This document shows positions 7,293 to 55,270 of a stretch of DNA of 64,000 nucleotides, one piece after another. The position numbers were made by a program, and so were the translations under genes. The DNA lies in NCBI GenBank assembly GCA_902780385.1, contig CACZFF010000015.1:4802-68801 (forward strand), in the 5' to 3' direction. Numbering within the stretch: the stretch's first letter is position 1; every line of letters starts with the position of its first letter. Under the pieces are notes generated by a model. It worked only from the letters and a program-made list of their open reading frames with translations, was not told the DNA's origin and searched no databases. This DNA comes from an uncultured Lachnospiraceae bacterium (GTDB lineage: Bacteria > Bacillota > Clostridia > Lachnospirales > Lachnospiraceae).

Positions 7293-7387
7293 GCATGCAC
7301 TTTGCAGTTGAATTGTCATCACACTTTGTTTATAATCTGCTGTGGAAAGAAGGTATGCGAAACCTTTTTCCATCATTTTTAAATAAA

Positions 7388-7476
7388 AGGGGAGCTGGCA
7401 GTAAGCCGGCTGAGAGGAGACTGTAATTGTTTCGACCCGTAACCTGATGTGGATAATGCCAACGAAGGGAAATGTT
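7388..7476 (+). promoter_or_regulatory. TPP (THI-box) riboswitch aptamer
   Basis: GGGGAGC...CTGAGAGG...ACCCGTAACCTGATGTGGATAATGCCAACGAAGGGAA matches the THI-box consensus (CUGAGA, ACCUGAU, GGAUAAUGCC). It is upstream of thiW. Confidence 0.9.
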
Positions 7477-7488
7477 TTCGCCTGAAAT

Positions 7489-11866: not shown

Positions 11867-12214
11867 TAAAATCCCTCCAGACAAATATACGGGTTTTGAG
11901 AGGGCAAACTCCTGAAAGCCGCGAAAGCACATATGGCTCAGCCTCTATTGCATGCCCGCTGTAGTAATTAAAGTGTATCACAAAGGATATGGTTAAAGAT
12001 ACATATATACATTCTCGACAGGAATCGACCGGGCGCATAGTTACTGTCCGCGCACTTTCGAAGGCGTGGATATGTAACGCTGCGTTCTGCTGTTCCAATG
12101 CGCTTTGCGCACAGAGCGGTATCTGTGAAAGCAATCCCGAGAAAACACCAAATAGATAAAATAATTACAAAGTACAAAAACTGTATCGTGATATAATATA
12201 CTAACTCAAAACCA

Positions 12215-12390
12215 GACGGTGTCGGACAGCAGTCACGGGACTGCGGTGTCCGGTGAAAAGGGAAACAGGTGAGAGACCTGTGCGAACTCGTCACTGTAAA
12301 TGGAAATGCGGACTGCATCGGGAGAAATTCCGGTCACTGGAAACGGGAAGGCTGCAGTCTGATGAAATCCATGAGCCAGGAGACCTGCCG
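12215..12390 (+). promoter_or_regulatory. cobalamin (B12) riboswitch
   Basis: AAGGGAAACAGGTGAGAGACCTGT, CGTCACTGTAA, GGTCACTGGAAACGGGAAGG and the B12 box GAGCCAGGAGACCTGCC. Extended -10 TGATATAAT at 12189-12197. Upstream of a BtuF-like binding protein. Confidence 0.8.
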
Positions 12391-12675
12391 GCTGTGTATT
12401 ATCCTGCACCCTCGAGATAAGGGAAGATAATAAATACCGTTCTCAGCAGCTGATCATTGTCTGATCGGTTTTCACTCTGAGGCTGAAATATGCCTGCTTT
12501 GTCTGAATGAAAAAATGCAGCTTTTTTACAGATCTGCTGCGTGCTATTTTGCTGTGGCCGGAATTATCTCTATGCGGGATGATCCGGCTTTTTTTCTGCG
12601 GTAAATATTCCTTTTCACCAGGGATTCCTGCGGCACCTGTCTGCAGATCACCATGCAGCAATAAGGAGGAACGGC

Positions 12676-46544: not shown

Positions 46545-46646
46545 TCTTCAATCTCCTTAAAAAATAAAAGTGGCGGGGAAATTCCCCGCCGATCGGTGGG
46601 ACCAGGGTCTTACGACCAGCCCCATAAGGTGTCTAGCACCATTTGT
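46545..46646 (-). ncRNA. structured 5' leader of the DUF3800 gene with an intrinsic terminator (candidate DUF3800-associated RNA motif / attenuator)
   Basis: Read on the minus strand: GGTG-CTAGA-CACC; then GGGGCTGGTC-GTAA-GACC-CT-GGTCCC; then GGCGGGGAA-T-TTCCCCGCC + ACTTTTATTTTTT; then AAGGAG and ATG. Confidence 0.55.
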
Positions 46647-49107: not shown

Positions 49108-50553
49108 ATGGATCTTGCAACATTGCTGGTACAGGTTGACGATGTCTTATATACCTGGCTGCTGATCTATCTGCTGGCCGGGAGCGGTATCTATTTTTCC
49201 ATCCGCACGCGCTTCGTGCAGATCAGGCGTTTCAAGGATGCCATGAACTGTATGATGGAAAAGAAAGAGGGCGACAAGGGTGTTTCCTCTTTCCAGGCGC
49301 TGATGATCGCCACTGCTTCCCGCGTAGGCACGGGCAACATGGCGGGCGTTGCTACCGCGATCATTATGGGAGGTCCCGGAGCAGCTTTCTGGATGTGGCT
49401 GATGGCGGTACTCGGTTCTGCATCTGCATTCGTAGAGAGTACGCTTGCACAGATATATAAAAAGAAAGAAGGCGATTCCTTCAAGGGAGGCCCCGCCTAC
49501 TATATCGAGCGTGCCCTCCATGCCCGCTGGCTGGGAATTATTTTTGCAATTTCCCTGATCGCAACCTTTGCCTTCGGTTTCAACGGCCTGCAGGCCTACA
49601 ATATTGTCTCTGCCTTTGAAGTCTATGTGGGAAATCTGCAAGAAAGCATCCTTCCGACAGTGATCGGTGTCATCCTTGCAGTCTGTGCGCTGGTAATCTT
49701 CTTCGCAGGCGACGTCATCGGAAAGATTTCCTCTGTCCTGGTGCCGGTCATGGCTGGCCTCTATATTCTGATCGGTGTCTTTGTCATCATTACCAACATC
49801 ACCCGGATTCCGTCTGTGCTGGCGCTCATTCTGGCAGATGCCTTCGACTTCAAGGCGGTTTTCGGAGGTTTTACCGGATCCTGCATGGTGCTGGGTATTA
49901 AGCGAGGCCTCTTTTCCAACGAGGCCGGTATGGGCTCTGCACCCAATGCCAGTGCCTCCGCGACGGTTTCACACCCTGCCAAGCAGGGTCTGGCCCAGAT
50001 CATCTCGGTCTACATTGACACCCTGTTGATCTGCTCCACGACCGTCTTCCTGATTCTCCTGACCGGAGACTGGGCTTTCAGCGGCTATTCGGGTATCCCC
50101 CTCCTTCAGCAGTGCGTTTCCAGAGTCATTGGTCCCATTGGCATCCACTTTGTCACAGTCATTGTCTGTCTCTTCGCTTTTACCTCTATCATAGGCAATT
50201 ACTTCTATGCGGAGGCAAATATCCTCTTTATCACGAAGAACAAGACTGCCATGACGATCTTCCGCATCGCCGCAGCCATCATGGTCTTCATCGGTGCCGG
50301 CAACAGCCTGGATGTCGCATGGAGCCTTGCGGATATCACCATGGGCCTGGAGGCTGTCGTCAATATCATTGCCATCGTCCTCCTCGGCCGCATAGCCTTC
50401 GCAGCCCTCGACGATTACGAGAAGCAGAAGAAAGCAGGCCTCGACCCTGTTTTCTACGAGGGCAGCATCGGGCTTAACGATACGGATGTCTGGAAAGAGT
50501 GTGGTCTTACTCCAGATACATCTCCTGCAGGACAGCCCGGTCCCCGGCTGTAA
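49108..50553 (+). CDS. alanine/glycine:cation symporter (AGCS family)
   Basis: GSGIYFSIRTRFVQIR, SSFQALMIATASRVGTGNMAGVATAI, GLFSNEAGMGSAPNA. Promoter TTGTGC-17-TATAAT with TGG at 49027-49052. Confidence 0.9.
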   Translation: MDLATLLVQVDDVLYTWLLIYLLAGSGIYFSIRTRFVQIRRFKDAMNCMMEKKEGDKGVSSFQALMIATASRVGTGNMAGVATAIIMGGPGAAFWMWLMAVLGSASAFVESTLAQIYKKKEGDSFKGGPAYYIERALHARWLGIIFAISLIATFAFGFNGLQAYNIVSAFEVYVGNLQESILPTVIGVILAVCALVIFFAGDVIGKISSVLVPVMAGLYILIGVFVIITNITRIPSVLALILADAFDFKAVFGGFTGSCMVLGIKRGLFSNEAGMGSAPNASASATVSHPAKQGLAQIISVYIDTLLICSTTVFLILLTGDWAFSGYSGIPLLQQCVSRVIGPIGIHFVTVIVCLFAFTSIIGNYFYAEANILFITKNKTAMTIFRIAAAIMVFIGAGNSLDVAWSLADITMGLEAVVNIIAIVLLGRIAFAALDDYEKQKKAGLDPVFYEGSIGLNDTDVWKECGLTPDTSPAGQPGPRL

Positions 50554-51301
50554 TGCCAAGTCCTTTTTCGAAGAAGGATGGCATATCGCCATACACTGTT
50601 TTTACTGTATTGTAGAAGGAGAACAGGAATTCCTCATCGACGCCGAAGAGATAACTGAGAGACTCATCAGCGAGCGGGCTGTCGGTGGCAGCTTTTTGCT
50701 TTATGCTGTCACATAGGTTTTTGATTTCGCTGTGCAGGCATTTTCTGGTGTACAGGTAGTCGGCAAAGATTTCGCTGCGGGGGACACCAAGTGCTTCCTC
50801 GACAAGGACCGCACCGATTCCGGCGCGGTCTTTTCCTACGGTGCAGTGCCAGAGGACCGCCCGGTTATGGGGTTCTTTCAGAATCCTGAGGAATTTTGAG
50901 TAGCCGGCAAGCTGTGTTTTGCCCGTCGCCATGGAGCTGTAGAGCTGACACATATAAGTGCGGGCCTGGGCAGGTTTGAAGAGCAGGCGGGTAATGATAC
51001 TCTCGTCGGCCTCTGTTTCACGGGTGATACCGGGCGTGAGTGAATCTACGAGGGGGATGTGATAATAAGCTGTATCAGGGATGTCCCGGTCCGGCTGCCT
51101 GGTTTTCTCGCGCGTCGTCCGAAAATCCGCGATCACGCTGAGGAGACCTGAGAGCTGATCGAGATCCTTGTCGGAAATCGCTCCCAGGTGGCCGCAGCGG
51201 ATCAGGCGCCCGCAGCGAATTGAGCGTCCGCCCTCTGCGGGCATCCCGCCCAGATCCCGGATGTTGGGGAGCTGTTCATATGATAGTAAAGTACTTGGCA
51301 T
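50507..51301 (-). CDS. protein-tyrosine phosphatase family protein
   Basis: Signature HCTVGKDRAG (CX5R). N-terminal NIRDLGG. The 3' end overlaps the 3' end of the symporter gene by 47 bp. Confidence 0.85.
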   Translation of the reverse strand: MPSTLLSYEQLPNIRDLGGMPAEGGRSIRCGRLIRCGHLGAISDKDLDQLSGLLSVIADFRTTREKTRQPDRDIPDTAYYHIPLVDSLTPGITRETEADESIITRLLFKPAQARTYMCQLYSSMATGKTQLAGYSKFLRILKEPHNRAVLWHCTVGKDRAGIGAVLVEEALGVPRSEIFADYLYTRKCLHSEIKNLCDSIKQKAATDSPLADESLSYLFGVDEEFLFSFYNTVKTVYGDMPSFFEKGLGITAGDRAVLQEMYLE

Positions 51302-51522
51302 GCCGGCAGGCTCCTTTCTAACTGAACACAGGCATTCGTGCAGTTACGATGCCCATCAGGCTTTTCCTCTATGTTTATTCATCATTGTATTGTAGCGGAC
51401 TTGTCGGGAATGTCAAATGGGCCTGTCATCTCAGAAAACATAAGTATTCGGGATGGAGCGGGCGTGAAAACTGTCGTAAAAGTCTGAAAAATCCAACAAT
51501 TTAATAAAACAAGCTGAATTTA

Positions 51523-51550
51523 TTGACAATTTGATGCTAAATGGTATAAT
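51523..51550 (+). promoter_or_regulatory. near-consensus sigA promoter TTGACA-16-TGgTATAAT
   Basis: TTGACA at 51523-51528, TG at 51542-51543, TATAAT at 51545-51550. Confidence 0.75.
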
Positions 51551-51556
51551 AGTTAC

Positions 51557-52940
51557 ATCAAACAGATAGACGTTACCCGGGTAAAAAAAATACAATTGTC
51601 GATTGAAACTGATGTCAAGTCAAGGAGCAGTTGGTTGTTGTAAACGTCTTGAAGTATTTTATTTAATTTCATAAGGTTGATCTCGATCAACCTGGCCGGT
51701 AGCAAAGGAATCTGGGTAAAGGAGGTACGGACCGAAGTACAACTAAACTTTTTCCACCAAACAAACCAGAATCTGAACTGTTGGAATTTATGAAAGGAAG
51801 GTACGGACCAATTATCTAATAAGTCTTAGCTTTATAAAGTTCGTATCGGAAATCATCTGATCACTGCAGATAGTTCGTGAAGGGGCAGAATTTGCAAGAG
51901 TAACGTGATATTTGCAACAGAAATGTAGTTTATGTATTTTTCAAAGAACGAATTTCGTTGACGGGATGTTGACCCCGCGATGATATTTGTAAAACAGCAT
52001 CAGAGAATCACAATAGGTGTTTGTGAAGAAGTGATTAGTCTTAGACAAATCCGCTGGTGTGAATTCGGAAGATGAAGAAGATAGATAATCTGCAAGATCA
52101 GGATGGTTTTCAAGAGAGTAACTGAATATAATATCAGTAGTAAGAGAACAAGAACATCCTATTGAGTGATGAAATTAGTTCCGGGTACCTTCTGCAGACG
52201 AGAAATGCAGGAGAGAAATTAACTGATACAGTATCCAGTCTCTCAAAAAAATAACTGAATACGGAGGTAAGCACCGTTGGACAAGAATTCCTGAGAAGGG
52301 ATGTTGATCGCAGGCAGGACAAGCCGGACAGCATCCCTTCTCTGTTGCTGTGCAAAGAGTGAAAAATATTGCCGATGCAATATTTTTCACTCCGGATGTT
52401 TGTGCCGGAGCACAAACATCCCCTGATGTCAACGAGAAATCGTCTTTACGAATTTCTCGTTGACGATGCCTACGCTCTGAAGTGCTCCGGCATGTTTCGG
52501 AAGAGTGAAAAAACGCCAATTTCAAAGCCCTTATACGTAAGGCTTTGAAATGCGTATTTTTCCTCGGGGCAGCTCTGGCGAGCGGCATGGTCGTAAAGGG
52601 TGCTGAAGCCGGAATCTCCTCTGAGTGTTCACCTTATTCGCCGGTTTTCAAGTTAAAACTGCGTGAACACATCTGCGGCCGAACCGGCAGAAGCAGGCGT
52701 GACTTGTAACGTGTTCACACAAGATTCGCTTTATTTACACCTTTGTTTTGTTTTCTTTAGAGCGTAAATCTGTTATATTATCGCAATATGGATGAAAACA
52801 GAAAGTCAGGTGCCGCAGAAATCCCAAAACCCCCAAAACCAAAAAACAAAAACCCAAAAACTAAAGTTCAAAAGCCCGATATGACCGGGCATTTGCGGAC
52901 ATTTGACGATCATCACACATGACCAGGAGAGAACAATTAT
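51557..52940 (+). ncRNA. about 1.38 kb ORF-poor transcribed region: candidate large noncoding RNA or giant asnB leader (class unknown)
   Basis: No credible ORF; only two overlapping antisense ORFs of odd composition. AT-rich 5' part with duplicated AGGTACGGACC. Perfect hairpins of 11-16 bp at 52293-52342, 52357-52392, 52394-52421 and 52428-52464, plus an imperfect composite hairpin at 52503-52566. Three-way competing GTGTTCAC/GTGAACAC/GTGTTCAC. CA-rich tract at 52820-52880. Confidence 0.5.
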
Positions 52941-55052
52941 ATGTGTGGAATATGCGGATTTACCGGAGATCTTGCCGGATGGAACTTGGAAAAGAATACA
53001 AGTGCAGATGCGGCGCTGCTCAGCAGGTCGTCACAGAACACAAAAGTGAAAATCACCGGACACCCGGAGAATGAGGAGGGACGCAGGCAGGTCCTGACCA
53101 ACATGATGAACCGGATCATTCACCGCGGACCTGATGGTGCGGGGCAGTATATCGACAGCGGGATTTCGATGGGATTCCGCCGTCTGTCGATCATCGACCT
53201 CAAGGGAGGTGACCAGCCTATGGCGACGGCTGACGGGAGCAGGGTCATCACCTTCAACGGCGAGATATACAACTACCGTGAGCTTCGCGAGGACCTGAAG
53301 ATCAAGGGACATACCTTCCTGACAAACTCGGACACTGAGGTGCTGCTGCATGGCTACACCGAATATGGCCCCAGGATCCTGAACCGGCTCCGCGGCATGT
53401 TCGCCTTTGTGATCTGGGACGCACGCCGCAGGGAGCTTTTCGGCGCCCGGGACATGTTCGGGATCAAGCCGTTTTACTATGCGGAAATCGAAGGTAACTT
53501 TGTCTACGGCTCCGAGATCAAGAGCATACTGGAGTATCCCGGATATGACCGCCAGGTCAATCTGCAGGCACTGGAGCAGTACATGTCCTTCCAGTATTCT
53601 GTACTGCCGGAGACTTTTTTCAGAGGTATCTACAGACTGCCGGCCGGCCATTACATGGTCTGGAAAAACGGAAAGCTCAAAATCCACAGATATTTTGACC
53701 CCATGCTGACCCCCCGTCCGGTCGGAAAAAAGAGGAGCATTGGGACAGCTGCGGCATCTGATAAAAACGATGGCAGAAACAGGGCAGATAATGCCGGACA
53801 GACCGACGAAAGGAAGAGCGCGGATCACGCGCACAAGAGGCTGGTCAACCAGATCGACCGCGCGGTGCAGGAATCCATTATGTATCATATGGTAAGCGAT
53901 GTGGAGGTTGCCTCCCTTTTGTCCAGCGGTGTGGATTCTTCCTATGTGGCGGCCAATTTCGGCGGAGCCAAGACCTTTACAGTCGGTTTCGATTACGAGA
54001 CTTACAATGAGATCCCCTACGCGGAAGCCCTCTCCAAAGAGGTCGGGATCGAGAATTACAGCAAGATCATTACGACAAAGGAATACTGGGAGGAATTCCC
54101 CAGGATCCAGTATTTTATGGATGAGCCTCTGGCGGATGCCTCTGCGGCAGCCCTCTATTTTGTCGACCGCGAGGCGTCGAAGCACGTCAAGGTCATTCTC
54201 TCAGGTGAGGGCTCTGACGAACTTTTCGGCGGCTATGTGATTTATCATGAACCGCTCTCCCTCGACGCATACCAGAAGATTCCGAAGGTCCTGCGCAGGG
54301 CGGCGGCCAGTGTGGTCTCCAGGATTCCCGGCCACCCCAAGGGCAAGGGATTTATCATGCGAGGCTCCAAGTCCGTTGAGGAACGATTTATCGGGAATGC
54401 CAATGTTTTTACCGTGAAGCAGAGGAACAAGGTGCTCCGCCATACTTCCCCTCATTCGGATCCCAAATACTTGACCGCTCCTTTTTACAAAAGAGTGAAG
54501 GATCTGACGGATACGGAAAAAATGCAGTACATCGACCTCAACTTCTGGCTGCAGGGAGATATCCTGCTCAAAGCGGACAAGATGAGCATGGCGCACGGTC
54601 TGGAGAGCCGGGTCCCCTTCCTGGACCGCGGTGTATATATGGTCGCAAAGGATCTTCCTCTGGAAGAAAAGATCAGCGATACCAATACCAAGACCGCTTT
54701 TCGTGAGGCGGCTCACCGCTATATGCCCGCGGCGGCTGCCGAGAAGAAGAAGCTCGGCTTCCCGGTGCCCATCCGTATCTGGCTGCGCCAGGATAAGTAT
54801 TATAATATTGTGAAAAAGGCTTTCTGCAGCAAAGAGGCAGAGATTTTCTTCCACACGGACGAGCTCATGAAGCTCCTCGATGCCCACCGCGCAGGAAAAG
54901 AAGATTACAGCCGTCACATCTGGAATGTCTATACCTTCCTGGTCTGGTACCGCCAGTACTTCGTGCCGGGTGCCTGCGCAGTCTCCCTGGAGGATGAACT
55001 TGCCATGGAGCACATGCATGAAGACAAAAACCACGAAGTGCTGAATGCATAG
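52941..55052 (+). CDS. asnB: asparagine synthase (glutamine-hydrolysing)
   Basis: Ntn start MCGICGF, HRGPD, PP-loop LLSSGVDSS, SGEGSDELFGGY. Extra low-complexity inserts near aa 10-50 and 255-295. Confidence 0.9.
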   Translation: MCGICGFTGDLAGWNLEKNTSADAALLSRSSQNTKVKITGHPENEEGRRQVLTNMMNRIIHRGPDGAGQYIDSGISMGFRRLSIIDLKGGDQPMATADGSRVITFNGEIYNYRELREDLKIKGHTFLTNSDTEVLLHGYTEYGPRILNRLRGMFAFVIWDARRRELFGARDMFGIKPFYYAEIEGNFVYGSEIKSILEYPGYDRQVNLQALEQYMSFQYSVLPETFFRGIYRLPAGHYMVWKNGKLKIHRYFDPMLTPRPVGKKRSIGTAAASDKNDGRNRADNAGQTDERKSADHAHKRLVNQIDRAVQESIMYHMVSDVEVASLLSSGVDSSYVAANFGGAKTFTVGFDYETYNEIPYAEALSKEVGIENYSKIITTKEYWEEFPRIQYFMDEPLADASAAALYFVDREASKHVKVILSGEGSDELFGGYVIYHEPLSLDAYQKIPKVLRRAAASVVSRIPGHPKGKGFIMRGSKSVEERFIGNANVFTVKQRNKVLRHTSPHSDPKYLTAPFYKRVKDLTDTEKMQYIDLNFWLQGDILLKADKMSMAHGLESRVPFLDRGVYMVAKDLPLEEKISDTNTKTAFREAAHRYMPAAAAEKKKLGFPVPIRIWLRQDKYYNIVKKAFCSKEAEIFFHTDELMKLLDAHRAGKEDYSRHIWNVYTFLVWYRQYFVPGACAVSLEDELAMEHMHEDKNHEVLNA

Positions 55053-55141: not shown

Positions 55142-55270
55142 ATGGAATTTGGAGCTATCATTGGTCTTGCGGCATTCGGAGTTATGGCACTGATCGCAGT
55201 TATTGTGGGAATTATCGCAGCGGTTTCTACCGTTTCCGGTATTGATACCCGTGATAATGAAGGGGATTGA
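55142..55270 (+). CDS. small hydrophobic peptide (42 aa)
   Basis: MEFGAIIGLAAFGVMALIAVIVGIIAAVSTVSGIDTRDNEGD. GGGGAGG RBS 7 nt upstream. Below the ORF-track size cutoff. Confidence 0.4.
   Translation: MEFGAIIGLAAFGVMALIAVIVGIIAAVSTVSGIDTRDNEGD

Follow-up and report, generated by a model that had tools for sequence, protein, structure and literature searches.

The DNA analysed here is a 64-kb stretch from the genome of an uncultured Lachnospiraceae bacterium (contig CACZFF010000015.1), and we refer to this whole stretch, at its full length, as the window. We are concerned with an intergenic gap of 1639 nucleotides (nt) that lies between a phosphatase-like gene on the minus strand (50507-51301; Pfam Y_phosphatase3, tyrosine-phosphatase-like) and asnB, an asparagine synthase gene on the plus strand, and in particular with a non-coding RNA (ncRNA) gene of about 800 nt that we predict in this gap (Table 1). 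An original prediction, made from the letters of the window, had described the 1.4 kb between a promoter and the start of asnB as a single hairpin-dense unit without open reading frames (ORFs), and had offered two readings of it: a giant leader of asnB, or an independent large structured RNA. The sequence features listed there are real, and the interpretation is half right. The promoter, TTGACA-16-TATAAT with a TG extension, scores 12/12 and is the top-scoring site of the region. No ORF of 60 amino acids (aa) or more occurs in 51395-52134 or in 52588-52937, and the two overlapping minus-strand ORFs that had been noted (52134-52415, 93 aa; 52175-52588, 137 aa) are the only ones. The guanine-plus-cytosine (GC) content is 33-39% over ~51400-52300, versus 50-60% in the flanking genes, which bears out the impression of an AT-rich 5' part; the duplicated block (51707-51733 and 51783-51809, 78% identity) and the hairpin GGTTGATC-TC-GATCAACC (51675-51692) are both present; and the 3' part is indeed dense in helices, with five long inverted repeats, three of them 100% complementary, and a folding z-score of -10.2. 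What fails is the extent of the unit. Other species conserve only 51465-52362, and from 52354 onwards even strains already differ. The reading as an independent structured RNA is therefore supported for the first ~800 nt, and not at the proposed size of 1.4 kb.

Copies of the element were gathered by a metagenome scan with an invariant 21-base pattern, by contig look-ups through AsnB homologues, and by nhmmer searches of the recovered loci, which are denoted below by L numbers. These yield 16 copies of full length, at identities of 61-98%, which represent about 13 lineages of uncultured rumen Lachnospiraceae; the contigs L113 and L114 hold too little sequence upstream of asnB to be informative. 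Against the asnB loci of GTDB representative genomes, blastn finds 51465-52362 conserved in three uncultured Lachnospiraceae metagenome-assembled genomes (identities of 93%, 76-83% and 71-77%), so this part of the gap is not confined to one strain. The original prediction had asked whether homologues are always linked to asnB: in every recovered locus, asnB follows the element on the same strand. The two are directly adjacent in 13 of 14 lineages, the exception being the L012 lineage, while the upstream neighbour varies between a Na+/alanine symporter gene, the phosphatase-like gene, an AraC-type regulator gene (L110) and a DDE transposase gene (L112). The RNA is shortest in L104, at about 670 nt, and longest in L111, at about 915 nt. 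AsnB of the L104-L106 lineage is identical to the NCBI protein of the isolate "Sarcina sp. DSM 11001", and the RNA gene appears to be present in this cultured rumen isolate.

Beyond these lineages the element disappears. The nearest outgroups, whose AsnB is 60-66% identical and among which is Eubacterium cellulosolvens LD2006, have neither the element nor the synteny, and their regions upstream of asnB are short. Searches with nhmmer and with a covariance model of the 3' domain (R1), which matches family members only, find no copy in 77 other Clostridia asnB loci and no second copy within the window. A distant-mode blastn search of plasmid and phage collections gives no match, and three conserved 20-22-mers have none among viral contigs. 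We therefore consider the family to be narrow, restricted to about one genus of rumen Lachnospiraceae. Within this genus-level clade AsnB is at least 73% identical, and the element is single-copy per locus and tightly linked to asnB.

The ends of the predicted gene can be located by the signals that bracket it. The hexamers, the TG and the spacing of the promoter are invariant in all lineages, and the scanner again scores 12/12 in L104 and L096; the RNA would start ~7 nt past the -10 element. As to the other end, the original prediction saw no intrinsic terminator inside the region. However, a hairpin at 52293-52342 with the tail TCTCTGTTGCTGTG is kept in every relative. Its stem comprises 14-16 base pairs (bp), GAGAAGGGATGTTG...CA(G/A)CATCCCTTCTC, and its arms are identical in all lineages. 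The tail in the window is U-rich but interrupted, and the 3' end of the RNA would fall inside it. Because plain T-runs succeed the same stem in relatives (TCTCTTTTTTTTGTGTCTTTTTT in L104, TCTCTTTTTTTTTG in L106, TTGTATTTCTTTTTTTTTT in L096 and L112, GTTGCTGTTTTTTT in L107, GATGTGTTTTTT in L109), we regard the hairpin as an intrinsic terminator; with a loop of more than 8 nt, it escapes a consensus terminator scanner. The element thus has its own promoter and its own terminator, both conserved in position and orientation, as expected of a stand-alone ncRNA gene.

In order to judge the strength of selection, the identity of the element to the window is compared with that of the four-fold sites of asnB in the same genome pairs. 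The element is 91/82/70/70/70% identical, versus 63/52/54/51/41% for the four-fold sites, and invariant blocks of 20-31 nt run across all lineages. That is, conservation exceeds the neutral rate, which is again what a stand-alone ncRNA would show. Nothing in the pattern of change resembles that of a protein-coding gene: out of 148 pairwise indels, 123 have a length that is not divisible by 3, and the fraction of variable sites by phase is 0.50/0.49/0.54, without codon periodicity. No ORF is shared among the sequences compared, the seeming ones tracking nucleotide conservation in shifting frames, and the stop-to-stop fragments of the element have no Pfam match. A mini-ORF of 18 codons from 52166 does occur in all nine sequences compared, with zero synonymous change over 40 nt, which points to constraint at the level of nucleotides, not protein. 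We therefore reject the pseudogenised protein gene that the original prediction had named as a refuting outcome.

The RNA is predicted to fold into three parts: a 5' domain, a middle domain, and a highly conserved 3' domain. The window sequence of the RNA has a folding z-score of -5.9. When RNAalifold is applied to nine sequences, it gives 155 pairs, with 96% of cells paired. Twenty-three of the pairs are changed on both sides, versus 11.8 +/- 2.0 in column shuffles (0/500 reach the observed number) and 1-11 in slid controls, in which partners are moved by 1-3 columns. We then imposed this structure, without alteration, on 14 sequences; six of them, from about five new lineages, had played no part in its derivation. 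Here 93.8% of cells are paired, and 25 pairs are changed on both sides, versus 15.2 +/- 2.3 in shuffles (0/500) and 6-13 in slid controls. Compensatory changes, of the kind that the original prediction had proposed to look for, are thus seen in several helices, with good support for a long-range helix and for 4-5 hairpins, among them 51674-51693, 51955-51983 and 52020-52049. Moreover, about 18 of the predicted pairs are conserved G-U pairs, and therefore only the plus strand fits the structure.

The long-range helix, of ~20 bp, closes the middle domain. It forms in 15 of 15 sequences tested, at -17 to -31 kcal/mol and with many both-side changes, even though the sequences of its strands differ: CUGAUC/GAUCAG in the window, CCGGUA/UGACCGG in L013 and CCGAUAUUGUG/CUACAAAUAUCGG in L104. 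It also forms in the short L104 form and in L115. Within the domain that it closes, helices 18-21 have 2-4 pairs each changed on both sides. In the L104-L106 lineage the middle domain is reduced from about 220 to about 55 nt, about 170 nt being replaced by about 26 nt; on account of this natural deletion, we regard the middle domain as a dispensable module. In the 5' domain, L115 carries GGTACGAGC and so retains full pairing with GTTCGTATC. Close to the 5' end, the palindrome TTACCCGGGTAA might serve as the operator of a dimeric regulator or as a site of RNA-RNA dimerisation; alternatively, it might be a helix strand with 51710-51719. The 3' domain contains a third GGAGGTA..ACC motif (52263-52275), in addition to the two purine-rich copies of the 5' domain, and its pair 52149/52178 changes from C-G to U-A in four sequences.

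Two further helices were considered and rejected. An alternative 5' helix, GACGTT/AACGTC, shows no compensatory gain, and in one lineage its mismatches are left uncompensated. The other, which would join CGGTAGC (about 51697) to the post-terminator GTTGCTG, seemed compensated in four sequences, and fails in L096 and L104; RNAalifold with more sequences dropped it. As speculative readings of the conserved motifs, a CsrA-type sponge and a k-turn (GUGAUGA...CUGA) were entertained too.

Table 1. Features of the intergenic gap upstream of asnB and of its surroundings, in window coordinates; functional assignments are predictions.
Feature	Position	Strand	Remarks
Divergent promoter-like site, TTGACA-16-TACAAT	51389-51416	-	11/12; faces the phosphatase-like gene; outside the RNA gene, sets its upstream limit
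RNA-gene promoter, TTGACA-16-TGgTATAAT	51523-51550	+	12/12, extended -10
Predicted ncRNA, ~800 nt	~51557-52353	+	Basis: homologues, no conserved ORF, conservation, folding z-score
Perfect palindrome TTACCCGGGTAA, 12 nt	51573-51584	+	About +17 to +28 of the RNA; invariant except in L101
Variable hairpin GGTTGATC/GATCAACC	51674-51693	+	Sequence and length vary by lineage, pairing kept; 3 pairs changed on both sides
Purine-rich motif, copy 1, AAAGGAGGTACGGACC	51718-51735	+	Repeat family D1; near-invariant across lineages
Purine-rich motif, copy 2, AAAGGAAGGTACGGACC	51793-51811	+	Predicted pairing of its GGTACGGAC with GTTCGTATC (51839-51847)
Long-range helix, 5' strand	51850-51870	+	Closes the middle domain; RNA duplex with 52089-52110
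Middle domain	51871-52088	+	Hairpins 51955-51983 and 52020-52049 (conserved loop AGUGAUUAG)
Long-range helix, 3' strand	52089-52110	+	Pairs with 51850-51870
3' domain	52111-52292	+	Best-conserved part; GTGATGAAA block; hairpin 52189-52213 with invariant loop GACGAGAAA
Mini-ORF of 5 codons, TTG GAC AAG AAT TCC TGA	52277-52294	+	GGAGG upstream, 9-nt spacer; within the 3' domain
Terminator, stem GAGAAGGGATGTTG / CAGCATCCCTTCTC, tail TCTCTGTTGCTGTG	52293-52353	+	Arms sequence-invariant; T-runs in relatives
Stack of perfect or near-perfect hairpins	52354-52561	+	52357-52392, 52394-52421, 52428-52464, 52509-52561
asnB promoter region	52713-52779	+	Box GTTCACACAAGATTC at 52713-52727; extended -10 TGTTATATT at 52771-52779
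Putative asnB 5' untranslated region	52786-52940	+	C/A-rich micro-repeats 52819-52865; ribosome-binding site; not conserved between lineages
asnB	52941-55052	+	Glutamine-hydrolysing asparagine synthase, 703 aa; Pfam GATase_6/7 and Asn_synthase; constant downstream neighbour

After the terminator, ~590 nt remain before asnB in the window, and these hold a hairpin stack, the asnB promoter and a low-complexity 5' untranslated region. The stack is not conserved outside the species, and it is partly replaced or deleted even in sister strains, that is, in rumen-metagenome contigs that encode an identical AsnB. In the sister strains the first ~830 nt past the promoter are near-identical to the window and the stack is rebuilt over 52357-52510, a pattern that suggests rapid palindrome turnover (for example by template switching) or cassette-like exchange. 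Between strains, the flanks of the stack (52357-52561) are about 99% identical, two hairpins are changed in both arms, and L003-L006 and L008 have lost a further hairpin along with about 70 nt. The 12-mer AAGAGTGAAAAA occurs as a direct repeat around the variable block (52355-52366 and 52501-52512). The spacer hairpins recur nowhere else in the 64-kb window. They are probably fast-evolving insulators or back-up terminators, shielding asnB from the strong promoter of the RNA.

Between lineages, the stretch from the terminator to asnB measures 150-590 nt and is unalignable except for a region 50-170 nt before the asnB start; in the L012 lineage the terminator lies 1355 nt before the gene. The alignable region consists of a box, GTTCACA(C/A)AAGATTC, followed by AAATCTG-N-TAT-A-N-T, which includes an extended -10, and we therefore conclude that asnB has its own conserved promoter. 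Within this promoter region, the box GTTCACACAAGATTC is a candidate regulator site, and AAATCTGCTATATTA is present in L110. TTGCAA stands at the -35 position in L013, L096 and L109, and the scanner scores TTGCAA-16-TATCAT plus TG in L096. Two lineages separate the RNA from asnB further. In L011/L099 the spacer contains an extra canonical terminator, GCCGGAGGATCCGGC-T7, between the RNA and the asnB promoter, and in L012/L094/L095, three independent contigs, a complete phosphatase-like gene on the opposite strand lies between the RNA and asnB. As for the untranslated region, its micro-repeats in the window are CCCAAAACC and similar units, while L011/L099 have tandem repeats of about 24 nt instead.

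The position of the phosphatase-like gene is itself unstable: among the loci compared (L012, L093, L104, L110, L112) it stands before the RNA gene, between the RNA and asnB (L012 lineage), or is absent. The copy in the L012 lineage is only 49% identical, and the loci without the gene carry an AraC gene or a DDE transposase upstream.

It is important to ask whether the element belongs to a family that is already described. A cmscan of 51250-53000 against all 4227 models of Rfam 15 gives nothing at gathering score, and at E<=10 only chance microRNA and small nucleolar RNA matches far below threshold, in agreement with the failure of the original prediction to recognise a known class by eye. Seven relatives likewise have no Rfam 15 match at gathering score, and the L104 short form has none at E<=10; an ARAGORN scan for tRNA and transfer-messenger RNA returns nothing. 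The original prediction had left membership of OLE, ROOL or GOLLD undecided. No covariance model of ROOL, GOLLD, OLE, raiA or HEARO matches, nor does that of any other Rfam family, and we place the element outside ROOL, GOLLD and OLE because the defining model matches were tried and failed. A group II intron or other mobile RNA was also considered and rejected, given no Rfam match, a single copy at a fixed locus, and none in plasmids, phages or viral contigs. The ncRNA discovery papers looked up by term describe no RNA upstream of asnB, and full-text searches of the open literature brought up nothing relevant beyond papers on the large ncRNAs already known. Elsewhere in the window, Rfam matches at gathering score are a cobalamin riboswitch (12200-12406, +, 87.6 bits), a TPP riboswitch (7378-7487, +, 54.3 bits, exactly at threshold) and a DUF3800-XI RNA (46575-46623, -, 61.7 bits).

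In general character, the asnB-linked RNA most resembles ROOL, GOLLD and OLE. Like them, it is predicted to be a stand-alone RNA longer than 500 nt, its hosts are a Bacillota/Clostridia lineage, and it comes, as did ROOL, from rumen metagenomes; it has its own promoter and terminator, and its invariant blocks alternate with variable hairpins that are polymorphic in length. Unlike them, it is far narrower, belonging to one genus-level clade, and its locus is fixed beside asnB, whereas ROOL and GOLLD mostly lie in prophages or tRNA-rich surroundings and OLE accompanies the oap genes. It also differs in being AT-rich and purine-rich, and its covariation-supported helices are still few. For ROOL, GOLLD and OLE, cryogenic electron microscopy has shown homo-oligomers (PMC12286853). 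Another point of comparison is the smtA motif, a high-ranking large ncRNA candidate of the screens for GC-rich intergenic regions (IGRs), described as too long for a riboswitch and not assigned a function (PMC11109978). The two are alike as long conserved intergenic RNA candidates, and unrelated in sequence. Since the asnB-linked RNA is AT-rich relative to its genome, it would have been missed by GC-rich-IGR screens.

We propose, with a probability of roughly 0.6, that ~51557-52353 on the plus strand is a stand-alone gene for a new family of ~0.8-kb structured ncRNA that acts in trans. The comparisons presented above establish, at the level of sequence, the boundaries of the RNA gene, its non-coding nature, the selection acting upon it and part of its fold. 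The RNA would be transcribed from its own sigma-70-type extended -10 promoter, and the near-perfect match of that promoter leads us to expect strong, probably constitutive expression; transcription would end at the RNA's own intrinsic terminator. The folded RNA may then act in trans, either as a protein-binding scaffold within a ribonucleoprotein or as an RNA-only assembly, in which case the invariant loops (GACGAGAAA and AGUGAUUAG) and the three GGAGGUA..ACC motifs would be the likely contact sites, for protein or for RNA-RNA interaction. It would not act as a leader of asnB. From its constant place beside that gene, we suspect a link, functional or regulatory, with asparagine or nitrogen metabolism. 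A stronger version, in which the RNA is the founding member of a new class of large RNAs (0.67-0.91 kb) with its own biochemical role, as a scaffold or self-assembling particle linked to asparagine or nitrogen, we advance only tentatively, at slightly less than even odds.

Several observations weigh against this proposal. At 37%, the GC content of the element falls well short of the 50-60% found in the genes on either side, and so low a value is not typical of structured RNAs. Part of the covariation statistics comes from the very alignment that yielded the structure and, because the tests are in this way partly circular and the lineages few, the support they give is moderate overall; the narrowness of the clade also leaves many helices invariant, so that covariation can say nothing about them. 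The fold of the 5' domain is not supported: the 5' helix 51573-82/51710-19 shows no compensatory change, and it has two uncompensated mismatches in L101. The transcription start site, the 3' end and the abundance of the RNA are all deduced from sequence. The U-poor terminator tail in the window makes read-through plausible. Both terminator arms are 100% sequence-invariant, a degree of constraint seldom seen in a simple terminator and one that may reflect other pairings. Finally, adjacency to asnB is kept despite the AraC gene (L110) or the transposase (L112) upstream, which would be expected of a cis-acting element too.

These last points lead to the foremost alternative, namely that the 800 nt regulate asnB in cis, as a leader or attenuator in which transcription from the strong upstream promoter stops at the conserved hairpin unless a signal permits read-through. 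Low charged tRNA-Asn might provide the signal, as might a metabolite or a protein. This is the giant-leader reading of the original prediction in a shorter form. In its favour, the element is co-oriented with asnB and directly upstream of it in the 13 lineages noted above, despite changing upstream neighbours, as T-box and attenuation leaders are with amino-acid biosynthesis genes. Like such leaders, moreover, it has a terminal hairpin with invariant arms and an upstream complementary segment as a possible competitor. The terminator tail in the window lineage is weak, and the invariance of both arms and of the preceding 30 nt is compatible with competing structures. One of these could be an antiterminator formed by the invariant ACAUCC (52153-52158) with GGGAUGU (52298-52304), although this pairing is just 7-8 bp and is beyond the reach of covariation.

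In another version of the attenuator, a ribosome on the 5-codon mini-ORF could stall at its Asn codon and cover the 5' arm of the terminator. The mini-ORF recalls the trpL and hisL attenuators in its Shine-Dalgarno-like GGAGG, its 9-nt spacer, and its short Asn-codon reading frame that ends at the foot of the terminator, the stop codon overlapping the stem by two bases at its start. All 14 aligned sequences keep the mini-ORF intact, L111 having AAT GCC. Unlike trpL and hisL, it has a single regulatory codon among five, a UUG start and no synonymous variation, and it is preceded by about 720 nt of conserved RNA that such attenuators do not need. It is not enriched in Asn codons, the candidate alternative pairing is invariant across sequences, and its occurrence by chance is plausible in a purine-rich RNA with three GGAGG. 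The mini-ORF is thus either a product of chance or a leader-peptide-like device beside an asparagine synthase gene.

The arrangement downstream of the hairpin tells against the attenuator. Past the terminator there is a conserved promoter that belongs to asnB itself, the spacer varies and defies alignment, a second canonical terminator precedes the asnB promoter in L011/L099, and an opposite-strand gene intervenes in the L012 lineage; strong T-run terminators are found in most relatives. In a T-box the terminator stands immediately before the regulated coding sequence, on one transcript. Here, in contrast, the gene lies 150-590 nt past the terminator (1.35 kb in L012) and has its own promoter, and the intervening sequence holds a second terminator or a gene in some lineages. 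The T-box model has no match at E<=10 in the window or in L104, and no riboswitch model matches either; a UUGGA near the terminator would presumably fit a U73 tRNA, not tRNA-Asn. Length is a further objection, for 800 nt is several times what is typical of leaders and riboswitches, and about 3-4 times the length of a T-box leader. We therefore judge a cis-acting leader to be unlikely, though worth keeping in mind.

The remaining alternatives fare worse. Conservation might act at the level of DNA, the element being a cluster of protein-binding sites (operators such as TTACCCGGGTAA, or nucleoid or replication sites) with no functional RNA. The perfect palindromes TTACCCGGGTAA, GGTACC, GAATTC and CTGCAG and the low GC would agree with this, and many conserved blocks are invariant and so uninformative on pairing. 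But the element lies, in a single orientation, between a conserved promoter and a conserved terminator, its helices change in a compensatory manner, and on the opposite strand its conserved G-U pairs would turn into A-C mismatches; besides, 800 nt of contiguous constraint goes far beyond the needs of an operator cluster. We find this explanation improbable. Last, a decayed protein gene, a small-protein gene or a mobile remnant (a group II intron, insertion sequence end or prophage DNA) is scarcely credible, for the minus-strand stop-free stretches of 74-90 codons, the GC unlike the surroundings, the shifting phosphatase gene and the transposase upstream in L112 stand against frames that are not conserved, frame-breaking indels, an absence of codon periodicity and of Pfam matches, an 18-codon ORF with zero synonymous variation where the four-fold sites of asnB are about 50% identical, purifying selection exceeding that on asnB synonymous sites, no Rfam match to intron or mobile-element RNA, no similarity to plasmids, phages or viral contigs, and a single copy at one fixed locus with no second copy in the window.

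Two observations concern asnB and its downstream side. A hydrophobic ORF of 42 aa, MEFGAIIGLAAFGVMALIAVIVGIIAAVSTVSGIDTRDNEGD, lies just downstream of asnB (55142-55270, + strand, in the window). It is found, at 64-95% aa identity, in every RNA-bearing lineage compared whose contig reaches past asnB, and in the gene calls of most later loci; none was detected beside asnB in the outgroups L014-L016. Together with the RNA and asnB, this small membrane peptide may make up a single clade-specific module. The length of AsnB varies from 634 to 718 aa among close relatives, owing to insertions after the N-terminal MCGICGFTG and to a low-complexity segment near residues 270-310.

To our knowledge, conserved structured bacterial ncRNAs longer than about 500 nt are very few, and each is an rRNA, a ribozyme, or unsolved, as are OLE, ROOL and GOLLD, whose unexpected assembly into RNA-only particles was shown recently. 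The predicted RNA would be a new family inside this known, rare kind of large bacterial ncRNA. It would add a test case of about 800 nt with clear boundaries, and with a natural deletion variant that marks a dispensable domain. It also exemplifies the candidates that GC-based intergenic screens would overlook, and its apparent cultured host opens the way to experiments. For annotation, the 1.6-kb gap before asnB in these rumen Lachnospiraceae would be read as an RNA gene, a variable spacer and an asnB promoter. The strict linkage of the RNA to asnB provides a concrete starting hypothesis for its function.

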